64,000 nt of DNA from assembly GCA_963755915.1 (NCBI GenBank), contig CAVWLP010000002.1, forward strand, positions 2,976,001 to 3,040,000, given 5' to 3'. The notes beneath the pieces are model-generated. The model was given only the letters and a program-made list of their open reading frames with translations. It was not told the DNA's origin and did no database searches. Both the position numbers and the translations under genes were made by a program. The first letter of the stretch is position 1. The number at the start of each line of letters is the position of its first letter. Below, in pieces: positions 7,076 to 55,306 of the stretch. The stretch comes from an uncultured Phycisphaerales bacterium. Its GTDB lineage: Bacteria > Planctomycetota > Phycisphaerae > Tepidisphaerales > Tepidisphaeraceae.

Positions 7076-7175
7076 AACTGATGTCCGAAATCCGAAATCC
7101 CAATTTCGATTCGAATTTCGAATTTCCCTCATTCGAATTTGATTCGAATTTCGAGTTTCGAATTTCGAGTTTCCC

Positions 7176-13917: not shown

Positions 13918-14041
13918 AATGGAAACCCGATCCCCCGTTTAGCGGCCGCGTTTACGCGGCGCGTCTTCATTCGAATTTCAAATTTGTCCGGGCGCAGCCG
14001 GGATTCGAATTTCGAATTTGATTCGGATTTCTGGTTTCGAG

Positions 14042-15567
14042 TCACACCCCCGCCATCTCCCCAAACCTCTCCCTCAAATTCCCATACAACTTCCCATAAA
14101 CCCCATACCCCCTCCCATAAACCCCCTCAGTCTTCCCATTCGGCTTCCGCCTCCTCACGCACTTCACGCAACTCCTCGCCGCCTCTTCCACGCCGCTCCA
14201 AACCCCGGTCCCCACTCCCGCCAATATCGCCACCCCATACGCCGGCCCCTCCGCCGCGCTCGTGCTCACGATCGGCTGCCGATAAATATCCGCCTGCAAT
14301 TGCAGCCAAAAATCGCTCCGCGCCCCTCCTCCGCTCGCCCTCACCTGCGAAACCGGTATCCCCATCCCCTCCATGATCGTCAGCGCATCTTTCATCCCAT
14401 ACGTCACCCCCTCCAGCAGCGACCGAATCAGCATCCCCCGCGTCGTCCGCGCCGTCACCCCGATCCACCCCCCGCGCGCAGCGGATCCGGATACGGACAC
14501 CTCTCCCCGGTCAGATACGGCAAAAACTGCAACCCCTCACACCCCGCCGGCGCTTTCTTCGCCTCTTCAATCAACAGCACATACGGATCCACTTTCTTCT
14601 TCTTTGCGACTGCCACTTCCTCACCCGCCAGATTATTCCGAAACCACTGAAACGACCCGCCCGCCGAAAGCATGCATCCAAACACGCACCACTTCCCCGG
14701 CACGGCATGACACATCGTATGAACCCTCCCCTTCGGATCCCTCGTAGGCTCATCGCTATGCGCAAAAAACACTCCGCTAGTCCCCAGCGTCGCGCTCACA
14801 ATCCCCGTGGAAGTAATCCCATTCCCCACCGCCCCCGCAGCCTGGTCGCCGCCGCCCCCAACCACCGCCGTCCCCGGCGACAACCCCAATTCCTCCGCCG
14901 CCGAAACCGTCAGATACCCGGTAATCTTCGGCGACTCAAACACCTCCGGCATCAGCGCCCTATCAATCCCCAATAGCCCCATCAACCGATCCGACCACTT
15001 CCGATTCACCACATCCAGCAGCAGCGTCCCGCTCGCATCACTCACCTCCGTCGCATACTCCCCCGTCATTCGCAACCGAATAAAATCCTTCGGCAGCAAA
15101 ATATGTTTCGTCTTCTCATAAACCCGCGGCTCATGCTTCCTCACCCACAAAATCTTCGGCGCCGTAAACCCCGTCAACGCCGGATTCGCCACCATCTCAA
15201 TCAACCCCGCCCGCCCCCCAGCCTTCTCCTCAATCTCCGCGCACTCTTCCGCCGTCCTCTGATCATTCCAAAGCAGCGCCCGCCGCAGCGGCTTAACCCC
15301 ATCCCCCAGAAAAACGCTCCCATGCATCTGCCCCGAAAGCCCGATCCCCTTGATCTCCTTCTCTTTGACTTTCGCCTTCTTCCGAACCTCCCGCGTCGCC
15401 CTCACCACCGACTTCCACCAATCCCCCGGATCCTGCTCCGACCACCCCGGCTTAGGCGAATAAATCGGATGCTCCGCCATCCCCGTCGCCAGCACCTTCC
15501 CCCTCTCATCGCAAATGACGGTCTTCGTCCCCGAAGTCCCAACATCAATTCCCAGCAAATACGCCAT
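14042..15567 (-). CDS. xylB: Xylulokinase (frameshift ~14475)
   Basis: '[10 protein letters not shown]', 'GLSGQMHG', 'LLWNDQR', 'GGGDQAAGA', 'FLPYLTGER', 'SGGGARS'. Confidence 0.92.
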
Positions 15568-15580
15568 ATTCCATTTCTTT

Positions 15581-15622
15581 CCCCCTCGCCCGGTACTCCG
15601 GGAGAGGGTTGGGGTGAGGGCC
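15581..15622 (+). repeat. 'CCCTCTCCC...GGGAGAGGG..GGGGTGAGGG' palindromic element (15581-15622, 21235-21275, in-CDS 34821-34861)
   Basis: Three copies of ~41 bp; the reverse strand reads LTPxLSxxTGRG, a widespread small repeat type. Confidence 0.85.
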
Positions 15623-16724: not shown

Positions 16725-16797
16725 GCCCAACACCCCAATGCCACCCCGAACTTCACCAGGCCAGCCATGTGTCCCCGCGGCGGAACCGCGTTTTATA
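16725..16797 (+). repeat. ~130-bp repeat copy B, left half (right half 18273-18325), interrupted by IS110
   Basis: Joining ggaaccgcgtttt-ATA to ttcgagccacc restores the consensus spacing. Confidence 0.88.
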
Positions 16798-16870
16798 ATC
16801 GCATGAAAGGCCATCTCCCTGCCGGAAGTTAACATTCCGGTTTTGGTGTCATTCACACAAGGAGATAGCC

Positions 16871-18070
16871 ATGAAGTTATACGACAAGGTAGTTCAGGTA
16901 GGGCTGGACGTCCATCGGAAGTTCTCGTCCGCCAGTCTGCGCGACGCTTCCGGGAAGGTCATTGCTCGCGAACGCCTGGATCACCTGGATCGCCAAAAGC
17001 TTCGAGAGCGAATCGCTCAGTGGCCGCGAGGCACGCCGGTGATCCTGGAAGCGACATTTGGCTGGGGATGGCTCAGCGATGAGTTGCAGATTTTGAACAT
17101 GCAGCCCCACCTGGCCTCGAGCCGCAAAGTGGCGGCATGGCGGGAAGGACGCGGGATCGCCAAGAGCAACAAGGTCGATGCCGACCTGCTCAGTGAACTC
17201 TGGAACGAAAAACCGATATTTAAGCGAGGCATCATGAAGCGCTGGTGGGAAGTCTGGCTGGCCCCACGCGAGATTCGTGATCAGCGGGAGCTGCTGCGCC
17301 ATCGGATGACCCTCGTTCAGGCTCAAACGCAGTTGAAAAATCGCATTCACGCGACGCTGCACCGCCATGGAATCGTCAGCGAGCTCACCGACCTCTTCGG
17401 TGTGCAGGGCCGGCGTTTCCTGTCGCTGCTCACCGAGGACAAGACCCTGAGCCTCTCAGGACGCCAGACGCTCAAGGAAGATCTCATGCTGCTGGATTCT
17501 CTGCGTCGCCTGATCGCACGGGCCACCCGCCGGTTCCGCGCGACCATGAAACGATCGGAGATCGGCCAGCGCCTGATGACCGTGCCGGGCATCTCCACCG
17601 TGCTGGGATATACGCTGGTCGCCGAGATCGGCCGAATCGATCGTTTCTCCTCCAGTCGATGCCTGCTCCAATACAGCCTGCTGGCGCCGCAGGCCGACGA
17701 CAGCGGAGAAGATCGCGATGCCAAGCCCATCGGCCGCCGACTTGGTCACGCCGGTCGCACTACCCTTCAGTGGGCCTTTATTCAGGCCGCCCACTCGGCA
17801 GTGCAAAGGGACGCTTTTTTGCGAGAACTTTTCAATCGCCGTACCAACAACGGCAAACAGGACCGCGGTCGCGGCTACATCACCGTCGCCAACCGCATAT
17901 GTCGGATCGTCTATTCAATGTGGAACAACAACCAGGATTATCAGGAGGTGCCGCCCCCAAGACCGGGAAGCAAAAGACATAAGGAACTGATCTCGTCCGG
18001 AAGTGGGCCAGCCCTGGCTCGAATTGGCCATGAGCCCGAAGCAATTCAGGCTCGAGAGGCCACGTTATAA
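16871..18070 (+). CDS. IS110-family DEDD recombinase/transposase
   Basis: 'VGLDVH', 'ILEAT', 'KSNKVDA', 'TVPGIS', 'AEIGRIDRF', 'DDSG' catalytic Ser; SD GGAGA. Confidence 0.95.
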   Translation: MKLYDKVVQVGLDVHRKFSSASLRDASGKVIARERLDHLDRQKLRERIAQWPRGTPVILEATFGWGWLSDELQILNMQPHLASSRKVAAWREGRGIAKSNKVDADLLSELWNEKPIFKRGIMKRWWEVWLAPREIRDQRELLRHRMTLVQAQTQLKNRIHATLHRHGIVSELTDLFGVQGRRFLSLLTEDKTLSLSGRQTLKEDLMLLDSLRRLIARATRRFRATMKRSEIGQRLMTVPGISTVLGYTLVAEIGRIDRFSSSRCLLQYSLLAPQADDSGEDRDAKPIGRRLGHAGRTTLQWAFIQAAHSAVQRDAFLRELFNRRTNNGKQDRGRGYITVANRICRIVYSMWNNNQDYQEVPPPRPGSKRHKELISSGSGPALARIGHEPEAIQAREATL

Positions 18071-18200
18071 TTGGGCCGCCCGCGCCGGATGAGATCATGT
18101 GCCGCTCGGCCAAACGCTGTTGATCGGGCCCGGCCAGCACGAATGGATATATGGACCGCCGAGAGGCCAGTCACCAGCCGGCAGACGGACGAAGAGGTCT
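18004..18200 (+). ncRNA. Putative bridge/seek RNA of the IS1111-type element
   Basis: Stem/internal-loop whose loop strands match the target (TGGCTCGAAT 18015-24; CGTTATA 18063-69); a downstream loop has ATGGATA (18143-49), matching the IS right end. RNA ends uncertain. Confidence 0.7.
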
Positions 18201-18460
18201 CGGAATGAAAAAGAAGTAACCGCTTTTCGCGAGGAGAATTTTTTTGTTGATCGGGGAAGCCTTTCATGGATATTCGAGCCACCGCATTTCCTCGTCACTC
18301 AAACCACAACCGAAAATACTCTTCTTCTTCTCTCTGTATGCCGACTCGAATTCCTCACTGGACAAGAAAGACACCATCCCATCGCAACAATTTTGCACTA
18401 CCTTGTTCTGAATCCCCCAACATGTTCTAATTTAATTTTAACAGCAAACCCCGCGGAAAT

Positions 18461-21219: not shown

Positions 21220-21266
21220 GAACCGCGCATTTATCCCCTCTCCCGGTACTCCGGGAGAGGGCTAGG

Positions 21267-22064
21267 GTGAGGGCCTTGAGCCAGACCCGACCTCCAACAA
21301 AAACCGCCCTAGTCACCGGCGCCTCCACAGGCATCGGCCGCGACCTCGCCCACCTCTTCGCCCAGGACCACCACAACCTCGTATTGATTGCCCGCACCCA
21401 ACCCGCCCTAGAACAACTCGCCGCCACTCTAAAACACCAACATAAAATCGAAGTCCAAATCATCCCCCAGGACCTCTCCGACCCCGCATCCCCCCAAAAA
21501 ATCTTCGACCAACTCCAATCCCAACCCATCGACTTCCTGATCAACAACGCCGGCTTCGGCTCCCACGGCCCCTTCGCCGACTCCGACATCCAGACAACTC
21601 TCTCCATGCTCCAACTAAACATCACCACTCTCACCCACCTAACCCGCCTCTTCCTCCCCCAGATGCTCCAGCGCCGCTCCGGAAAAATCCTCAACGTCGC
21701 CTCCCTCGCCGCCTTCCTCCCCGGCCCCCTCATGGCCGTCTACTACGCCACCAAGGCCTATGTCCTTAGCTTCTCCGAAGCCCTCTCCTCCGAGCTCGCC
21801 GGAACCGGCATCACCGTCACCGCCCTCTGCCCCGGCCCCACCCAAACCGAATTCCAAGCCCGCGCCGGAATCTCCCACTCCCTCCTCTTCAAATCCAAGG
21901 TCATGCCTTCCATGACCGCCGCCCGCATAGGCTACCGCGCCATGCTAAAAGGCCATCGCACCTCCATCCCCGGCCCCTTAAACAAACTCTCCGCCCTCTC
22001 CACCCGCCTCCTCCCGCGCCAAATCACCGCCGCCGTAGCCAAAAAACTAAACCAATCCCGCTAA
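21267..22064 (+). CDS. Short-chain dehydrogenase/reductase
   Basis: 'ALVTGASTGIG', 'NNAGFG', 'YYATK'; start probably GTG 21267 or TTG 21276. Confidence 0.88.
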   Translation: MRALSQTRPPTKTALVTGASTGIGRDLAHLFAQDHHNLVLIARTQPALEQLAATLKHQHKIEVQIIPQDLSDPASPQKIFDQLQSQPIDFLINNAGFGSHGPFADSDIQTTLSMLQLNITTLTHLTRLFLPQMLQRRSGKILNVASLAAFLPGPLMAVYYATKAYVLSFSEALSSELAGTGITVTALCPGPTQTEFQARAGISHSLLFKSKVMPSMTAARIGYRAMLKGHRTSIPGPLNKLSALSTRLLPRQITAAVAKKLNQSR

Positions 22065-33657: not shown

Positions 33658-35983
33658 ATGTCCAACCCCACAGAATCCAACTTCACTCTCCCCCAGGCCC
33701 TCGCCCTCGCCCTCCAGCATCACCAGGCCGGCCGCCTCCGCGACGCCCAATCCATCTACCAAAAAATCCTCGCCGCCGATCCCAACAACCCCGACGCCCT
33801 TCACCTCCTCGGCCTCCTCTTCTCCCAATCCGGCCATCACCCCCAGGCCCTCGAATTGGTCCGCCGCGCCATCCATCTCCATCCCACCACTCCCACCTTC
33901 CACGCCAGCCTCGCGAGCATCCATCACGCCGCCGGCCAATTCAACGAATCCATCTCCTCCTATCGCCGCGCCATCGAGCTCCGCCCCGACTACGTCGAAG
34001 CCCTCTCCAACCTCGGCGGCCTCTATTTCGAACGCCGTCTCTATAACGACGCCGCCGACTGCTGCCGAGCCGTCTTAAAAATCCGTCCCGACTTCGTCAT
34101 CGCCTGGTCCAACCTCGCTCACATCCTCAACGAGCAGAAAAGATTCTCCGAAGCCCTCGATTGCGCCGACAAAGCCCTCTCCCTCCAGCCCGATTTCCCC
34201 GACGCCGCCGCCCGCGGAAATTCCCTCCGCGAGCTCGGCCGAATCGACGAATCCATCACCTGCTTCAACCAGGCTCTCACCCTCCAGCCCAACGCCCCCA
34301 AAATCCTTAACAACCTCTCCATCTCCCTCACCGCCCGAAAACGTTTCGACGAAGCCCTTTCTGCCCTCGATAAGGCCATCGCCCTCCGCCCCAACTGGCC
34401 CACCCCCTGGGTCAACCGCGCCACCACCCTCCGCGACGCCGGCCGCCCGCACGAAGCCGCCCTCGCCGCCCAGCGCGCCATCGACCTCGATCCCAACCTC
34501 CCCGAGGCCCACATCAACCTAACCGGCTCTCTCCTCATCCTCGAACGCATCGACGACGCTCTCTCCCCCGCGCCGCGCCGTCGAACTCAACCCCCGCTCC
34601 CCCGAGGCCCTCGCCACCCTGGCCTGGGCCCTCAAAGACGCCGGCGACATCCCCGCCTCCATCGCCGCCCTCGATCGCGCCCTGGACCTCGACCCCACCA
34701 ACCCCACCCATCGCAGCAACAAAATCTACACCCTCGAATTCGACCCCCGCGCCGATGCGAAGTCCTTGCTCGCCGAACAACGAAAATGGAACGACATCCA
34801 CCGCATTTCCCCCGCAATTTCCCCCTCTCCGAGTTCTCTGGGAGAGGGCAGGGGTGAGGGCGGTGAAAACCGTCGGCTGCGCATTGGTTATCTCTCCCCC
34901 TATTTCCACGGCCACGCCGAATCCTTCTTCGTCCTCCCCCTCCTGGAATCCCACGACCACGAAAATTTCGAAATCCACTGCTACAGCGACTCCATCCGCA
35001 CCGACGAAATTACCGAGCGCCTGAAGCGCACCGCCAACGTATGGCACATCACCACCGCTCTCACCCACAACCAACTCGCCGACAAAATCCGCGCCGATCG
35101 CATCGACATCCTCATCGACCTCGCCATGCACATGTCCCACAACCGCGCCCTTACCCTCATCCAAAAACCCGCCCCCATCCAGATCGCCTGGCTCGCCTAC
35201 CCCGGCGGCATCGGCCTCGACGCCATCGACTACCGCATCACCGACCCATACCTGGATCCCCCGCAACCCAGGAACGCCCACGGCGCCGCCGTGGGTTCTT
35301 CGATTACTCAAGACGAAAATTACCACGAGCAATCGATCCGCCTTCCCCACACCTGGGCCTGCTACAACCCCCTCACCGACATCCCCGCCGCTCCAATGAA
35401 CGACTCGGGCCCCCCCCGTTTCGGCTGCCTAAACAACCCCTGCAAACTCACCGACCCCACCCTCCGCCTCTGGGCCAAACTCCTCAGCGCAATCCCCGAT
35501 TCCACGCTCCTCCTCCAATCCCTCTCCCGAGAGCAGCGCGACAAAATCACCGCCATCTTCGATTCCGCCGCCGTCTCCCCCGCCCGCCTCCACTTCGTCT
35601 CGCGCCTGAACCGCGATCAATATCTCCGCCTCTACGATCAGATCGACATCGCCCTCGACCCTCTCCCCTACAACGGCATCACCACCACCTGCGACGCCCT
35701 CTGGATGGGCGTCCCCGTCATCACCCTCCCCGGCCGCACCGCCGCGGGCAGGGCGGGCCAAAGCATCCTCACCAACATCGGCCTCAATGAACTCATCGCC
35801 TCCGGCGAAGACCAATTCATCCAAATCGCCAAATCCCTTGCCGCCGATCGCCAGCGTCTGAAAGACCTTCGATCCAATTTGCGCGACCGTCTTCGCCAAT
35901 CGCCCCTGATGGATTTCCCCCAATTCGCCCGCGACATGGAATCCGCCCTTCGGCAAATATGGATCGGGGGAATCGCCCAATGA
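33658..35983 (+). CDS. TPR + GT41 (SPINDLY/O-GlcNAc transferase-like) protein; frameshift ~34565
   Basis: Many TPRs; 'LRIGYLSP.F..H', 'IDILIDL', 'KPAPIQ.AWLAYP', 'DIALDP.PYNG.TT.CDALWMGVPVITL.G'. Confidence 0.9.
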
Positions 35984-38900
35984 ATCTCCACCAGCAACTA
36001 ACCGCCGCGATGGCCCACCACCAGGCCGGCCGTTTCGGCGAGGCCGAACGCCTCTATCGCGAGGCCCTCGCAACCTCACCCGATTCCCCCGACGCCCTCC
36101 ACCTCCTCGGCGTCCTCCGCGCCCGAAAGGGCGCGCACTCTGAAGCCATCGATCTGATCCGCAAAGCCATCGCCCTCCAGCCCAACACCTCTGGCTTTCA
36201 CATCAATCTCGCCCGCGCCCGAAAATCCGCCGGCGATTCCAAGGGTGCCGTCGAATCCTTTCGCCGCGCCATCCAGCTCCAGCTCACCCCTCCCGAAAAT
36301 TTTGACGCCCATTATCATCTGGCCGTCTGCCTGATGAACCTGGCACAAATCGACGACGCCCTCCCCGTCGCCCGCCGCGCCGTCGAGCTCAATCCCAACA
36401 GCGGCGCCGCCCACAACACCCTTGCTTCCATCTTAAAAGAAGACGGTCAAATCGAAGCCGCCCTTGCGGAAAAGGACAAAGCCCTCGACCTCGAGCCCAA
36501 CCACCCCGTCTTCCTCAGCAACCGCGCCTACCTCCTCGAATTCGACCCGCGCTCCACGCCCCAATCCCTCCTGGCCAACCAGCGAATACTAAACCAGCGA
36601 TTCACCGAATCCCTGAAGATTCAATTCCGCCCCCACGAAAACGATCGCAACCCCAACCGCCGCCTGCGCATCGCCTACGTTTCCCCCTATTTCCGCCATC
36701 ACGCCGAGTCGTTCTTCGTCCTCCCGTTGCTGGAATCCCACGACCCCGCGCAAGTCGAAATCCACTGCTTTAGCGACTGCAACGAGCCCGATGAGATCAC
36801 CAACCGCCTCCAAAAAGCCGCCCACGTTTGGCACGAAACCGCGAGCCTTTCGCACAACCAACTCGCCGAAAAAATCCGCGCCGACCGCATCGACATCCTC
36901 ATCGACCTAGCCATGTACATGTCCCACAACCGCGCCCCGGCCATCGCCCAAAAACCCGCCCCCATCCAAATCGCCTGGCTCGCCTACCCCGGCGGCTCCG
37001 GCCTCGACGCCATCGACTACCGATTCACCGACCAGTATCTCGATCTACAATCCCGGAACGCCCACGGACTTCGGCGAGCTCAGTCGAGCCGCGCCGCCGT
37101 GGGTCCCTCGATCACCCGAGACGAAAAATACCACGAACAATCCATCCATCTCCCCACCACCTGGATCTGCTACAACCCGATGAGCAACGAGCCCCCCGCA
37201 ACCCCGCGCCCTATCGGCCCCATCCGTTTCGGCTCCGTGAACAACCCCTGCAAGCTCAACGACCCGCTCCTCGATCTCTGGTCTAAAGTCCTCCACGCCG
37301 TCCCCGATTCCCAGATATTTCTCCAGGCCAACTCCGCCGCCCATCGCGCCCGCATCCGCGCCTTCTTCGAATCCCGCGGAATCCCCGCCAACCGAGTCAA
37401 ATTCGCCGTCCGCTGCCCGCGCCCCAAATATCTCCGTGCCTACGACCGCATCGACATCGCCCTCGACCCCCTCCCCTACAACGGCATCACCACCTCCTGC
37501 GACGCCCTCTGGATGGGCGTCCCCGTCATCACCCTCCTCGGCCAAACCGCCGCCGGCCGCGCGGGTTCAAGCATCCTCCAAAACGTCGGCCTCCCCGACC
37601 TCATCGCCAAAACTCCCGACGAATTCGTGAAGATCGCCGCGAATCTCGCCGCCGACGCCCCCCGACTCGCCGACCTGCGCCAATTCCTCCGCGCCCGCAT
37701 CGAATCATCCCCCATGATGAACGCAAAAAAATTCGCCCGCGACATCGAAGCCGCCTATCGAAACGTCTGGTCCGTCTGGTGCAACCCGCGTCCCGCCGAT
37801 CCCGATCCCGATCAATTGCACGCCCTGACCGTCAAATTTGTCAATGAAAACCGCTACGCCGACGCCCTCACCACCCTCGACCAACTCCTCGAACTCCGCC
37901 CAAATTGGCCCCATGGCTGGGCCAACCGCGCCTGGCTCTTTCGCCACCTCGCCCGCGCCGAGGACGGCCTCGCCGACGCCCGCCGCGCCCTCGCCCTCGA
38001 CGCAAATTGCTCCGATGCGCATCACATTCTCGCCCTCTGCCTCTACGACCTCGGCCGCATCGACGAAGCCCTCCCCTCCGCCCAAACCGCGGTCAAGCTC
38101 AACCCGCGCGACGCCTCCTACCGAAACACCCTAGGACTCATCCTCAAAGAGGATGGCCAGATCCAACCCGCCGTCGAAGAGTTCAAGCAAGCCGTCGAGC
38201 TCGATCCCCACAACCACATCATCCACAGCGGAATGGTTTACTCCTTGGAATTCGATCCGCGAAGCACGGCCCAATCCCTCCTCGCCGAGCAGCGCCGTTG
38301 GAATCAGTTCCACGCGGTCCCCCTGAAGCACCTCATCCGCCCCCACGAAGATAATCGCGATCCCGATCGCCCCCTCCGCATCGCTTACGTCTCCCCCTAT
38401 TTCTGGGAGCACGCCGAGTCGTTTTTCGTCGTCCCCCTCCTCGAATCCCACAACCCCGCCCAGGTGGAAATCCACTGCTATAGCGACAGCAACCGCCCCG
38501 ACGCCGTCACCCAGCGCCTGAAAAAAGCCGCCCACGTCTGGCACGACGTCGCCGGTCTTTCGCACGAGCGTCTCGCCGAAAAATCCGCGCCGACCGCATC
38601 GACATCGCCATCGACCTCGCCATGCACATGGCCAACAATCGCCCCCTGACCTTCGCCCAAAAACCTGCCCCCGTCCAGATCGCCTGGCTCGCCTATCCGG
38701 GCGGCTCCGGCCTCGACGCCATCGACTACCGCATCACCGATCCCTTCCTCGATCCGCCGGAATTAGGTGATTCGGATTACCACGAAAAATCCATCCGCCT
38801 CCCCAGCACCTGGATCTGCTACGACCCCCTAAGCAGCGAACACTCCGCCGCCCCGCGCCCACCGGGCCCGATCCGTTTCGGTTCCCTCAACAATCCCTGC

Positions 38901-39438
38901 AAGCTCAACGAGCCGCTGCTAAAGCTCTGGTCCCAGGTCCTGCGCCGTCCCCGATTCCCAAATCCTCATCCAGGCCATCTCCAACGCCCACCGCGCCCGC
39001 ATCCTCTCCACTTTCGATTCTCACGGCATCTCCGCCAACCGCGTCCAATTCGCCCCGCGCTGCGCCCGAAACCAATATCTCCGCGCCTACGACCGCATCG
39101 ACATCGCCCTCGACCCCCTCCCCTACAACGGCATCACCACCTCCTGCGACGCCCTCTGGATGGGCGTCCCCGTCATCACCCTCCTCGGCCGCACCGCCGC
39201 CGGCCGCGCGGGTTCAAGCATCCTCCAAAACGTCGGCCTCCCCGACCTCATCGCCAAATCCCCCGAAAATCTCATCCAAATCGCCTCCACCCTCGCCGCC
39301 GACACCGCCCGCCTCACAGATCTCCGCTCAACCCTCCGCGCAAAATTCCAATCCTCCCCCCTCATGAACTTCCCAAAATTCGCTCGCGACATGGAAGCGG
39401 CTTACCACCAGGCCTGGAAAACCTGGTGCGCACGATGA
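35980..39438 (+). CDS. Tandem (TPR-GT41)x2 O-GlcNAc transferase-like protein; frameshifts ~38580 and ~38945
   Basis: ATG overlaps the previous stop (ATGA); two full GT41 motif sets separated by TPRs. Confidence 0.85.
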
Positions 39439-39485
39439 CTATTTCGAATTTCGGGTTTCGAATTTGATTCGAATTTCGAGTTTCG

Positions 39486-41967
39486 TCATTCGAATTTCCT
39501 CCTGGCCTTCCCCTTTGCCTCCGGCTTCGCCCGAAGCGGATCATCCGGCCAGGAATGTTTCGGATACCTCACCCTCAGGTCCTTCCGCACCTGAAAATAC
39601 GTCGTTTTCCAGAAGCTCCCCAGATCATCCGTGATCTGCACCGGCCGAAAATTGGGTCCAAGCAAATGCAAAACCACCGCTACTCTCCCCGCCGCGATTC
39701 TCGGCGTATCCTGCCAGGAGAAAACCTCCTGCAAACGCACCGCCAATATCGGCGCCTGCTCCCCGCGATACTGCAGCCGAATCGCGGCTCCCGCTCGGAA
39801 CCTCCAGCGCCTCCGGTGCTTCGCGGCGAAGAACCTGATCCAGCGGATATTGAAGCCGCGCCTCCAGCGCCGCCCCAGCCCGGATCGGCGAACCTCCTCC
39901 ACGCTCCGCCTTCCCGCGCAAAGTTCGCTCAGAATCTCCCCAAGCTGCACCTCGTCGAACGTCGGCCAGGCATGCTCCGGCATCGCCCGCCGAAGCAGCG
40001 CCACGCGACTCAAAAAATTCCCCGCCTCTTCATCCGTGCCAAAAAATTCCCCCGCCCGCGCCCAAGCGCCTCAGCCAGCTTTTTCCCCGCTTTGGCCGGA
40101 TCTACCGCCGCATCCATTTCTTCGGACAGAACCAGGTCGCGATACCGCACGATCCGCCGCCCGACCACCGCCTCGCGCTGAGGATCAAACTCCGCAACCT
40201 GCTCCCGAACGATCGACTGCGGGAACATTTCCACCAGCCACCCCGACTCGATCGCACTCGCGATCCTAACCGCCGCCTCCCGGCTCGACATCCGCGGATC
40301 GCTCCGCGCATCCAGCGCAGAAAAAATTCCCCCTGCCGCACCACCGATTCCCGATCCAGCCTCACACCCCCTCCGCCCACCATCACCGCCGCCGCTGGGT
40401 CCCGCTGTCTCCGCCGGCAAACCCGATCCGGATAGCCGAAAAGCGGCAGCTTCAAAAGCGTCTCCCGATCCGGCGATCTTCGCGCCGATCCCCCCAATCT
40501 CCGCCCAATTCGCAGCAACTCCGCGCTTACCCGCCGTACATCGGGGTCCTGCGAACCATCCATCATCACCAACAAATCGCTATCCCCGATCGTCGCCGGC
40601 GCACCCTTCTTCGCCTGCCTCACCTCCTCCGAAAGTATCGCCGCCAGAATCGCCCCCTCCTCCACGCACCCTCGATCCGCAGCCTCGCACAGCATCCTTC
40701 CGATCCGCGGATGCACCGGCAATTTCATCAGCCGCCCGCCCAATTCCGTCACGCCTCGCGAATCAACCGCCCCCAGCATCTCCAGCAAATTCCTCGCATG
40801 TTCCAGCGCCTCCGGCGGGGGGGCTTCAAACCACCCGAACTCCCCCGGATCGGATTTCCCCCAGGCATGCAGATCCAGAACCGCCCCGCACAGATCGACG
40901 CGCTGGATCTCGGGCAATTCAAAATCCTCCAGCCCCGCCTGCTCTTTCGCCGACCACAGCCGCAAACATTTTCCCGGCGCGGTCCGGCCCGCGCGCCCGC
41001 TCGCTGCGTGGCCGAAGCCTTGCTGAGCCGCTTCAACTCCAGCCGATCCAATCCCCGCCGCACGTCAAACATCGGTACCCGCGCCAATCCCGCGTCGATC
41101 ACCCAGCGCACCCCTTCAATGGTCAGCGAAGTCTCCGCGATGTTCGTCGCCAGAATGATCTTCCGCCGGCTCGATGGCTCAAGCGCCGCCATCTGCTCCT
41201 CAGCCGGCAAACTCCCATACAGCGGCAGCACCGCCAAATCGTGCCGCTGCCCAATACCAGCCAGCTCGCGCTGCGCCCCCGAATCTCCTGCGCCCCCGGC
41301 AGAAAAACCAGCACATCCCCCGCGCTTTCCTTCCGGCCCACAACCTCTTCCACCGCATCCCTCACGCGCTCCACAGCCGAAACTCCGCCACCCGCCCGAT
41401 ACTCTATCTCCACCCCAAACGTCCTCCCCGGCACATCGATAATCGGGCAATCCCCCAGAAACTTCGCCGCCGGCCCCGCGTCCATCGTCGCCGACATCAC
41501 CACGATCAGCAGGTCCGGGCGCACCGTCTGTCGCATCTCCCGCAGCATGGCGATCGCCAGATCCACATGCAGCGACCGCTCATGAAACTCGTCCAGAATC
41601 ACCGCACCCACGCCCTCGAGAAACGGATCGTCCAACATCTGCCGGGTGAGCACCCCCTCCGTCAAAACCCGCAGCCGGGTCTGAGGAGTGATTCGCCTTT
41701 CAAAGCGTATCTGATACCCCACTTCCCGCCCCAGGTTCCAGCCGTTTTCCTGCGCGATTCGCGCCGCCGCCGCCCGCGCCGCAACCCGCCGCGGCTGAAG
41801 CATCACGATATTCGGATGCTCGCGGGAAAGAATCCCGTCCCGCAAAATCCCCGGCGGCACCCGCGTCGTCTTCCCCGCCCCCGGCTCAGCCACCACCACC
41901 ACCGATTTCGCTCCCGCAGCGCATCGACAATCTCCCCCAGATACCCATCAATCGGCAGCGGAATCAT
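39486..41967 (-). CDS. hrpB: ATP-dependent helicase HrpB (several frameshifts)
   Basis: 'AEPGAGKTTRVP', 'QPRRVAAR', 'DEFHERS', 'MSAT', 'ATNIAETSLTI', C-terminal 'RLQE.F', 'Y..VRKDLR.RYPKHSWP.DP'. Confidence 0.92.
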
Positions 41968-43405: not shown

Positions 43406-43465
43406 GGCCTCATAATAAATCGGTCCGATTTGTGCTGTGCTTTATTTCCAAAAACCGCCCCCCGC

Positions 43466-43494
43466 TTGAAGGGCGGCGGGTGTCGCGATACCAT
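43466..43494 (+). promoter_or_regulatory. Original host tRNA-Val promoter (TTGAAG-N17-TACCAT)
   Basis: -35 at 43466-71, -10 at 43489-94, 11 nt before the tRNA 5' fragment. Confidence 0.75.
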
Positions 43495-43504
43495 CAAAAA
43501 GCCT

Positions 43505-43527
43505 CGGGCGATTAGCTCAGTTGGCCA
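43505..43527 (+). repeat. attL: 23-bp direct repeat (5' 22 nt of tRNA-Val plus one preceding base)
   Basis: CGGGCGATTAGCTCAGTTGGCCA, identical to 55040-55062. Confidence 0.95.
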
Positions 43528-53668: not shown

Positions 53669-55306
53669 ATGGCCAGTGTTTTCAAACGTGGCGGCAAGAA
53701 AAACCGCGAAGGAAAGTACGTCGCATCGTTCTTCGATGAGAATGGGAAGCGTGTCAGCCGAAGCACGGGCACGACGGATTACGATGCCGCTTGCCAGGTT
53801 GCGGCACGATGGGACACCGACGTTGCCCTGCGGCGCCATGGCGTGATTGACGCGACGCAAGCCCGCATCGCCGATCAGAACCGGCAGCATATCAGGGAGC
53901 ATGTCGCCGATTATCTGGCCCATTGCAGGCATGTCGGGCAGGACAAAGCCCACATTGCCATCAAAACATCGCAGTTGGCCAAGCTCGTGGCTGGAATCAA
54001 CGCAACCCGGCTGTCCGATCTTGAGCCGAACCGGGTAGAGCGCTATCTGGCCAATCTGGTGACAGCGGGCAAATCACACAGAACGCACAACCAAAATCGG
54101 GCCACGGCAGTCGCGTTCATGCAATGGTGTTTCGAGCAAGGGCGAGTAGCGTCCAACTTGCTGAAAATCGTCCCGACGCTCAATGAAGCCAAGGATCGAA
54201 GACGTGTGCGGCGGGCGTTGAGCGAAGATGAATTGTCCCGACTGCTCGCGGTATCCGATGAACGTCGGCCCTACTACCTGTTTGCCTATTACACCGGCTT
54301 GCGGGTCAAGGCCGTCAAAGCCGCTATGTGGGGCGACGTGGATTTCGACAGTGCTTTGATTCGCGTAAAAGTCGGCAACGCCAAGGGCAAAAAGGATGAC
54401 ATTTATCAGCCTTTGCATCCCCGATTGCTGCAAGAATTGCGGCGGATGAGAAGTGAAATGCCGTTTGCATCCCAGGCTGATCCGATTTTTCCCGGTGTGC
54501 CGCTGGTCAAGACGTTTCACCGGGATTGCCAGCGGGCCGGAATCGAGCGATATGACGCGGACGGCAGGCAACTGGACCGTCATGCCCTCCGCACCACGCT
54601 CGGCACTCACCTGGCCCGTGCGGGCGTTCTGCCGCAACTGGCGATGAAGGTGATGGGCCACAACGACGTGCAGACCACGATGAAGCATTACACGGCGTTA
54701 CGTCTGGCGGACACGGCCAAGGCGATGAACGCTCTGCCGTCCATCGAACCGAACGCCAATGCGAATGCCGCGGCCCTGCGGGCGACGGGAACGGACCCGG
54801 CTAATGTGCCGTCAAATTTGTCGGGTTTCGGCGCACAGCATGTTCGACAGCAGTTGTGCGGCTCGGATACGCAAAATCTGACACCCACTGTCGCTGATAG
54901 CGAAACGACAAAATCGTCCGCACAAAAAACTGTGGTGTTCATTTCGCCCCAGAAAAACAGGGGTTTTGGCGATATTCAGCAGCGTGCGACAGCCATCGAC
55001 TTGAAGGAAATCGCCGCTCGCGATACCATCGAAAAAGTACGGGCGATTAGCTCAGTTGGCCAGAGCGTACGGATCACACCCGTGAGGTCACAGGTTCGAG
55101 CCCTGTATCGCCCATTTCCACTTCTTCGCACTGCGTCGCATTATCTCGCACAGAGTCGCAAGGCCCCGCAAGCGTGGGACTTACGGAATCTTCGCCGGAA
55201 CTGGGTGCGATATCCTGCGACGCCTTGCGAGCAGATGCTGCACCGGATTCTGCACCGCCTGTCTCAGACGCTGCTTCCGCCGCCTTTGCAAAATGCTCAT
55301 CGGTGA
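53669..55306 (+). CDS. Tyrosine integrase (integrated form, reads through attR and the tRNA)
   Basis: N-terminal arm-binding-like domain; TGLR, HALR, MGH, HY catalytic motifs. Confidence 0.93.
   Translation: MASVFKRGGKKNREGKYVASFFDENGKRVSRSTGTTDYDAACQVAARWDTDVALRRHGVIDATQARIADQNRQHIREHVADYLAHCRHVGQDKAHIAIKTSQLAKLVAGINATRLSDLEPNRVERYLANLVTAGKSHRTHNQNRATAVAFMQWCFEQGRVASNLLKIVPTLNEAKDRRRVRRALSEDELSRLLAVSDERRPYYLFAYYTGLRVKAVKAAMWGDVDFDSALIRVKVGNAKGKKDDIYQPLHPRLLQELRRMRSEMPFASQADPIFPGVPLVKTFHRDCQRAGIERYDADGRQLDRHALRTTLGTHLARAGVLPQLAMKVMGHNDVQTTMKHYTALRLADTAKAMNALPSIEPNANANAAALRATGTDPANVPSNLSGFGAQHVRQQLCGSDTQNLTPTVADSETTKSSAQKTVVFISPQKNRGFGDIQQRATAIDLKEIAARDTIEKVRAISSVGQSVRITPVRSQVRALYRPFPLLRTASHYLAQSRKAPQAWDLRNLRRNWVRYPATPCEQMLHRILHRLSQTLLPPPLQNAHR
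54833..54856 (+). repeat. Putative integrase arm-type site (partner at 43587-43610)
   Basis: gcacagcatgttcgacagcagttg vs gcgcagcatatttgacagcagttg, 21/24 identical. Confidence 0.7.
55001..55029 (+). promoter_or_regulatory. Element-encoded replacement tRNA promoter (TTGAAG-N17-TACCAT) inside int
   Basis: Same -35, -10, 17-nt spacer and 11-nt distance to the tRNA as at 43466-43494. Confidence 0.8.
55041..55114 (+). tRNA. tRNA-Val(CAC)
   Basis: Acceptor GGGCGAT/ATCGCCC, D-arm GCTC/GAGC, anticodon arm TACGG-AT CAC AC-CCGTG, T-arm ACAGG-TTCGAGC-CCTGT; CCA not encoded. Confidence 0.95.

Follow-up and report, generated by a model that had tools for sequence, protein, structure and literature searches.

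How an insertion sequence (IS) finds the same position of a dispersed chromosomal repeat time after time, and where the information for this choice is stored, is the question raised by an element of 1475 bp in the genome assembly GCA_963755915.1. The DNA analysed, called 'the window' below, is a stretch of 64,000 nt (contig CAVWLP010000002.1, positions 2,976,001–3,040,000, forward strand); coordinates are those of the window, and the element and all its features lie on the + strand. The element, of the IS110/IS1111 family, covers positions 16798–18270 plus one TA dinucleotide. It is very probably an RNA-guided, IS1111-type member of the IS110 family, judging from its sequence and that of its relatives, and by most tests of membership it appears as an IS1111-type element with a seekRNA or bridge RNA. 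The mechanism of RNA-guided insertion has been known since 2024, and one feature of the layout is uncommon here, namely the position of the transposase stop codon within the guide hairpin. The evidence consists of the element ends, a TA core, a conserved structure, covariation between guides and flanks, and a potential promoter at the junction of a circular form. An initial annotation, made from the letters of the window, had proposed an element of this family with target guides in a 3′ hairpin, and guide–flank covariation across about 20 independent homologs bears this out.

The element, its ends and its core

The transposase open reading frame (ORF; 16871–18070) encodes 399 amino acids. Its product matches PF01548 (the N-terminal DEDD/RuvC-like domain) at 7.4e-09 and PF02371 (the C-terminal domain) at 1.6e-13, and reaches 161.5 bits, for a cut-off of 140, with the model NF033542 ('IS110 family RNA-guided transposase') over residues 10–355. 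Residues P273, D277, S278 and G279, which cover the P-x4-SG serine motif of the IS110 family, are invariant in 28 aligned homologs. The family model stops at residue 355, and the protein continues with a basic tail specific to its clade. Among 8000 candidates scored, 1448 protein relatives of the transposase were found at E ≤ 0.001; those that are named come from Tepidisphaeraceae and Humisphaera metagenome genomes. The comparison covered 78 loci taken from species-representative genomes, together with 16 from other members of the family.

The bounds of the element (16798–18270 and the shared core) follow from the comparison of occupied and empty repeat copies. The genome carries four copies of the element with 100% identity, all at the same position of a repeat of ~130 bp. 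Once turned to a common orientation, all four lie between …GGAACCGCGTTTT-ATA and ATA-TTCGAG… of one repeat family, and uninterrupted repeat copies read …GCGTTTT-ATA-TTCGAGCC…, with ATA present once. Relatives whose ends lie within the locus all have the same organization, (left flank)-TA-ATCN-CATGAAAGGC … GCCTTTCATG-GA-TA-(right flank). In the window, this corresponds to the left TA (16796–16797), a left terminal extension ATCG (16798–16801), the left sub-terminal inverted repeat CATGAAAGGC (16802–16811), the right sub-terminal inverted repeat GCCTTTCATG (18259–18268), a right terminal extension GA (18269–18270) and the right TA (18271–18272). The two inverted repeats, kept in homologs, are perfectly complementary over 10 bp (10/10), which falls within the range of 7–17 bp (usually 11–13) of the IS1111 group. 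Insertion is thus site-specific, at a short shared core and with no longer target duplication, in 4/4 copies.

The core is assigned as TA because TA alone is common to the clade while the target base preceding it varies (of 32 copies, 26 have G before the left TA, 3 have C, 2 have A and 1 has T). Relatives invariably read GGA-TA at the right end, and UA is invariant in the 3′ loop strand of the guide hairpin (32/32 distinct guide pairs, see below). The initial annotation had read the core as ATA. Its observation holds, since ATA is found once in empty repeats and on both sides of the element, but its assignment of ATA as core does not, and the extra A is best viewed as a coincidence of this target. 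That ATA would be the true crossover core of this element, all three bases being exchanged, is very improbable: ATA is indeed the exact stretch that can be assigned neither to target nor to element in the four copies and empty sites of this genome, and the UUAUA of the 3′ loop covers all three bases, but the clade-wide variation of the base before TA and the constant GGA-TA end speak for two bases, a near relative (L042) has the left junction CCC-TA-ATCA, and the 5′ loop of the window element pairs with the last A of ATA only.

A conserved hairpin at the 3′ side

The predicted target-binding hairpin is a short, seekRNA-like module of 105 nt (17991–18095). RNAfold of positions 18000–18090 gives outer stems, a 10 × 10 internal loop, an inner stem UGGCC/GGCCA and an apical hairpin, exactly the structure described in the initial annotation. 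The fold has an energy of −39.7 kcal/mol (z = −2.57), and 3/200 shuffled sequences fold as well; a further basal stem, pairing 17991–18000 with 18084–18094, extends it to 105 nt. An alignment of 21 loci, picked by motif search, and the window yielded a covariance model that scores 87 bits on the + strand of the window and 29.6 on the opposite strand. On the transposase strand this model gives 42 matches, with a single hairpin in every locus of at least 44% protein identity that extends beyond the gene end (loci L045, L056 and L060 end before the hairpin region), and it gives no match in the 38 loci L061–L098 (28–34% protein identity). Over the whole genome, it matches only at the four copies of the element. 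A search of Rfam returned no family for the hairpin, the only hit being a chance match at E 0.83, and the whole window yields only a tRNA.

Across related elements, the stems are nearly invariant and both loop strands are variable. On the hairpin structure 96.3% of the cells pair, and the covariation score, proposed at the outset as a check, amounts to 0.177 versus 0.092 for shuffled alignments (0/500 as high) and to at most 0.076 when partners are slid. Pairs that never vary number 13/26. Eight of the pair positions include G-U pairs, and the model scores the reverse strand 57 bits lower, both of which fit an RNA read on the + strand. One may ask, however, whether the hairpin acts rather as DNA (cruciform or single-stranded), or as a mere 3′ end or attenuator of the mRNA, so that the flank matches have no guiding role. 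The near-invariance of the stems, with half of the pairs fixed, would suit this explanation, as would the lack of direct RNA-library evidence for a processed RNA. Yet the 57-bit strand difference is not what a DNA cruciform would show, and G-U pairs are present. The loop strands covary with their own flanks on both sides, unlike the remainder of the 3′ region (see below), and RNA guidance has been demonstrated experimentally in this protein family (PMC11187229, PMC11208160). This alternative is highly improbable.

The 5′ arm UCUCGUCCGG (17991–18000) can also pair with a second CGGACGA(A)GAG segment at 18186–18197, located after the donor module and with the consensus CGGACGAGA in relatives. 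Since this arm has two possible partners, two alternative closures of the RNA are possible.

Target guides covary with the flanks

The two strands of the internal loop are the candidate target guides. The 5′ loop strand (18015–18024) is complementary to the top strand of the target, namely to the core A and the right flank TTCGAGCCA; as stated in the initial annotation, its sequence TGGCTCGAAT corresponds exactly, over 10 nt, to ATTCGAGCCA (18272–18281) in reverse complement. In the 64-kb window this exact 10-mer occurs at these two places only. Taken alone, such a 10-nt inverted match is weak evidence, because three other perfect 10-nt pairs exist within 1.7 kb; its position and the covariation carry the weight. 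The 3′ loop strand (18063–18072) has the sense of the left flank and core (UUA-UA, 18065–18069) and would pair with the bottom strand. Its CGTTATA (18063–18069) matches the left junction at 5/7 positions, three repeat copies, A (12763), D (30815) and E (30963), at 6/7 and copy C at 5/7; the figures previously given for the junction and for copies A, D and E are thus reproduced.

Stronger evidence comes from the relatives, among which 32 distinct guide pairs (5′ and 3′ loop strands) were collected. The right guide was evaluated in the 21 distinct elements with a right flank in the locus, the score being the longest common run between the reverse complement of the loop strand and TA plus 10 flank bases. 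Cognate combinations have a mean of 7.24 versus 3.96 for 416 non-cognate pairs, a value reached in 0/10000 shuffles. The longest run is 4 in one element, 5 in two, 6 in three, 7 in two, 8 in 12 and 10 in one, the window element. For the left guide, the score was the identity run leftward from the core in 25 distinct elements (32 copies), with L021 excluded for its aberrant left junction; the mean core-anchored run is 2.07 versus 0.93, and 0/10000 shuffles reach the observed value. The targets of the clade differ outright (TTCGAGCC, TACGAGCC, GGGTCCGC, GGGTGGGC, GCCGGGGG, GCCGGCGG, AGCCCC, AGTGCT, GCCACGGG). The remainder of the 3′ region served as a control and does not match the flanks (cognate 5.1–5.3, shuffled 5.2–5.3). 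An additional case is provided by an RNA-library contig from a relative with 90–95% identity, in which the guide changes G18017A and A18022T co-occur with the flank change T18274A; A18022T with T18274A would be a further compensating guide–flank pair. [quoted passage not shown]

Two further candidates were discarded. The AAACGC at 18112, considered as an extra left-flank guide, complements the left flank but scores 5.28 versus 5.23 when shuffled (126/300 as high) and is attributed to chance. In the 3′ loop, the base that follows the core, examined as a handshake-like position, equals the first left-end base in 19/25 distinct elements; this is not informative, because the left end hardly varies and the test has no power.

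Target repeat and choice of the site

The left half of the target repeat (16725–16795, repeat family D3) ends in a terminator-like hairpin, CGCGG-CGGAA-CCGCG (16776–16790), followed by TTTTA (TTTTATA when read up to 16797); the right half (18273–18335) belongs to repeat family D7. A genome-wide BLAST search with the flanks returned 32 left halves and 22 right halves. The sequence TATTCGAG is present 168 times in the genome, and 4 of these sites are occupied by the element. All occupied sites (4/4) have GGAACCGCGTTTTA on the left and TATTCGAG on the right, and GCGTTTTA is common to the four insertions. Three further GGAACCGCGTTTTA sites are empty, as are sites with the full 10-nt right match and a different left side.

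It might be argued that the four copies spread by homologous recombination or duplication among repeats, and that the guide–flank match reflects one old insertion. The same 14-bp left flank at all four sites, the likeness of the left flanks of C2:348420 and C3:899521 over ~100 bp and the small number of events (four) are compatible with this scenario. On the other hand, right flanks diverge beyond 7–9 bp (CCACCG, CCCCCG, CCCCCG, TAACCG), identity is 100% among the copies but only ~85–93% among the repeats, and independent homologs in other genomes sit at sites matching their own, different guides, so that this explanation is highly improbable.

The donor module and the circle junction

Downstream of the target-binding hairpin lies a candidate donor module. 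It comprises a stem A hairpin (18096–18141), in which UA is replaced by GC on both sides in 5/14 sequences, the single-stranded AAUGGAUA followed by UA (18142–18151), and a stem B hairpin (18152–18169). The single-stranded segment would be the donor guide, for the right end. Its ATGGATA (18143–18149) equals the right end plus core, as already recognized in the initial annotation, and ATGGAT is conserved in 16/16 elements. When hexamers common to the RNA region and the circle junction were searched on either strand, only ATGGAT and TGGATA recurred (16 and 15 of 16 elements, respectively).

The base that follows the donor motif (18150) equals the first right-flank base in 19/20 elements and, in 23/24, agrees with what the right target guide predicts (G in 18, T in 3, A in 2), with 0/10000 shuffles as high; it differs from the first left-end base, which the circle would require. 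The second base after the motif does not track the flank (7/20). Base 18150 resembles the handshake guides of IS621, and it may have a handshake role or may serve in recognition of the integrated right junction during excision.

A promoter scan of the linear element detected no sigma-70-like promoter. The sequence TTGATC (18247–18252) would act as a −35 box completed only at the circle junction, where, after 16 nt, GATAAT would be created across GA-TA-AT. This GATAAT would form in 15/16 elements, and the −35 box has at least 4/6 matches in 14/16. A promoter formed at the circle junction is a known arrangement in the IS110/IS1111 family (PMC12288879).

Proposed mechanism and evidence against it

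In the mechanism proposed, the 3′ part of the element would give rise to a + strand RNA of two modules. Module 1 (17991–18095) would be the hairpin whose 10 × 10 internal loop exposes the target guides, and module 2 (~18096–18195) would present the single-stranded donor guide between two hairpins, with one further base matching the first right-flank base. The element would excise as a circle, joining GA-TA-AT into the GATAAT −10 box, 16 nt after the TTGATC −35 box, and the junction promoter would transcribe transposase mRNA and guide RNA together. The transposase–RNA complex would then recombine at the TA core with the TA of a chromosomal repeat matching the guides. Transcription, RNA processing, protein binding, circle formation and chemistry are expected to proceed as in characterised relatives.

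Several observations weigh against this interpretation. The left guide is short (three bases plus the core in the window element), the 5′ loop pairs here with one core base only when most homologs have UA, and no copy of the element occupies a repeat on contig C2 (near 4406643, …CTGTTA|TATTCGAGCC) whose ungapped left match is better; recognition of the left side is not fully explained by the 3 + 2 pairing, and there are only four events. Moreover, the shuffle tests of guides and flanks overstate independence because the homologs are related. The sole RNA-library evidence is the contig(s) of the 90–95% relative (covering 17878–18321), which also run into the flank and may derive from DNA carry-over or read-through; the search of RNA-library contigs revealed no circle junction or excision joint. 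Finally, no left-end guide of at least 6 nt was found, and GATTA, GATTG, GGTTA and ATTA have no conserved position in 22 distinct 3′ regions. This agrees with the initial annotation, which had found no convincing second donor guide. It is plausible that the protein reads the left sub-terminal repeat as a substitute.

Overlap of the transposase gene with the predicted guide hairpin

The guide hairpin and donor module (17991–18195) lie 3′ of the conserved transposase domains, as the guide RNA does in IS1111 elements. This guide region is not wholly non-coding, because the transposase ORF runs 77 nt into the hairpin, so that about the last 27 codons of the gene lie inside it. The stop codon TAA (18068–18070) falls within the 3′ loop strand and consists of the core-pairing UA and the next A. 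The initial annotation had noted the overlap of target loop and transposase gene in this element, and the relatives extend it: the ORF ends 33–81 nt inside the hairpin in 30/32 distinct elements, the other two stopping 4 and 36 nt before it.

Translation passes through the conserved 5′ arm of the hairpin (CGUCCGG..GGGCCAGCCC) in each of the three phases. In the set formed by the 120 best protein relatives and the window, phase 0 (peptide SRPGTGQP) accounts for 61 sequences, phase 1 (SSGxGPAL) for 51 and phase 2 (LVRER) for 6, with 3 not assigned. A FastTree tree, computed after trimming the last 60 residues (one row of <330 amino acids being omitted), shows 15 phase changes. Since the arm is read in all three phases, it is the RNA that is conserved and not the peptide, with a frame nearly always open up to the hairpin. 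The linkers preceding it are rich in K and R; they contain no in-frame stop versus 5 and 10 stops in the other two frames (12/32 elements, anchored by motif), which is only suggestive of avoidance of in-frame stops.

Whether selection in this clade has placed the end of translation within the target-guide hairpin, or whether this is an accident of compaction, is the next issue, and selection is at present a doubtful proposal. The open frame in 30/32 elements, the use of three phases and the ~15 phase switches count in its favour. If it applies, the ribosome would have to open the 5′ arm together with the 5′ guide, and its termination point would lie between the two guides (on the core-pairing UA and A in this element), so that the end of translation would be coupled to the folding or processing of the guide RNA or to its loading onto the new transposase. 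Such coupling would promote activity in cis, and an mRNA under translation would be prevented from serving as guide.

In the literature, characterised IS1111 seekRNAs start 39–86 bp after the stop codon (preprint 10.1101/2024.04.26.591405). Literature searches, with look-ups in this preprint and four other reports (PMC11187229, 10.1101/2024.06.21.599552, PMC13604230, PMC12288879), gave no description of a guide RNA overlapping the transposase gene; supplementary material, such as that of Durrant et al. and Siddiquee et al., may show such cases, or TA cores.

Comparison with characterised systems

One close likeness is with the IS1111 elements that have a seekRNA (ISEc11, ISPa11, ISKpn4; Siddiquee et al. 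2024, PMC11187229), which share the DEDD transposase, the sub-terminal inverted repeats and an RNA on the 3′ side. Their seekRNAs and the hairpin of the window likewise have an internal loop, in which the segment complementary to the top strand precedes, on the 5′ side, the one matching the bottom strand, both matches meeting at the insertion point. A longer RNA form with two hairpins, a circle-junction promoter and, for ISPa11, a target of the repetitive extragenic palindromic (REP) kind complete the resemblance. Differences concern the transposases (330–350 amino acids versus 399 here), the terminal extensions (7 or 6 plus 3 bp versus ATCG, GA and one TA here, a departure from the published pattern) and the start of the RNA, after the stop codon in these seekRNAs and 77 nt before it in the window. 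Spacing between inverted repeats in the circle departs slightly (8 bp here versus 9–10 in characterised IS1111 elements), and the hosts are planctomycete-type metagenome genomes here, whereas characterised IS1111 elements come from Proteobacteria.

The bridge RNA of IS621 (Durrant et al. 2024, PMC11208160; Hiraizumi et al. 2024, PMC11208158) is similarly built of target and donor loop modules. Both strands are read around a 2-nt core, 'handshake' bases that pair with the partner DNA stand beside a guide, the target is a REP and the transposase belongs to NF033542. In contrast, the IS621 RNA lies 5′ of the gene with a reversed guide order, while that of the window lies on the 3′ side, and the core is CT in IS621 and TA here. 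IS621 has four guides in total; three were found here and none for the left end, so that the donor loop departs from the four-guide scheme. The partner-tracking base is beside the donor guide that pairs with the bottom strand in the window element, and beside the guides that pair with the top strand in IS621. The position of the donor guide, in the junction between hairpins, is as in many IS1111 orthologues (Durrant et al., PMC11208160).

ISPpu9 and ISPpu10 of Pseudomonas putida (PMC12288879), of the IS110/IS1111 family, also insert at one position of a chromosomal REP, and their circular forms carry a promoter at the junction. A strong native promoter, a 5′ RNA and additional small RNAs are described for ISPpu9, in contrast to the present element, where no sigma-70-like native promoter was detected. 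A chromosomal repeat as target, thought to be new in the initial annotation, is therefore not so, REP targets being published for IS621, ISPa11 and ISPpu9/10.

Genomic context and other repeats

The element lies downstream of an lpxD-like gene. It inserts directly after the T-run of the target repeat and therefore sits behind a likely transcription stop downstream of lpxD. Within the element, between the left end and the transposase start, a terminator-like hairpin with a T-run (16821–16841, from a hairpin scan) may dampen transcription reading in from outside; a similar sequence exists in the relative L012. The closest relative from another genome (L021, 83% protein identity) has an unusual structure. 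Its left junction (L021:2411–2445), GGCTCGTA-TATC-CATGAAAGG, repeats its own right junction (L021:3893–3925) exactly in reverse complement, flank included, and its 3′ loop does not match its left flank. The two apparent 'right' junctions of this copy suggest an inversion, or a recombination between oppositely oriented copies.

Other repeats occur in the window. Three tandem units of ~1.7–1.8 kb, 66–89% alike (34824–39242; D1, D2, D4–D6), are probably three paralogous genes. Short intergenic arrays of TTCGAATTT / TTCGAGTTT (D8; 1948–2034, 7132–7174, 14011–14053 and 39443–39499) form a second dispersed repeat. A third one is a palindromic, REP-like sequence of 41 nt (CCCCTC.CCCGGTACTCCGGGAGAGGG...; 15582–15622, 21235–21275 and 34822–34862), with copies 80–93% alike. 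In addition, a stretch of 74 nt (54989–55062), made of the upstream region and first ~22 bases of a tRNA-Val (55041–55114), has a copy with 76% identity 11.5 kb upstream (43454–43527), where no tRNA is called; this partial copy may be a remnant or an attachment-site-like duplication.

Significance

For its host, the element would be an ordinary and probably active insertion sequence, placed behind lpxD and inside a repeat. Its broader interest lies in the family. RNA-guided IS110/IS1111 recombinases are under development as programmable tools for DNA insertion, and few IS1111-type systems have been characterised. The clade represents a natural reprogramming series, in which one invariant RNA scaffold and a TA core are combined with >20 distinct guide pairs and their cognate sites, and from which guide rules can be read (typically the core plus 6 bases on the right and the core plus 1–5 on the left). 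Surveys restricted to the non-coding ends of elements can miss or truncate guide RNAs of this kind, since the annotated transposase gene covers a portion of the guide RNA in this clade. Lastly, the target-tracking base beside the donor guide hints at a mirror image of IS621, either in the order in which strands are exchanged or in the geometry of the handshake.

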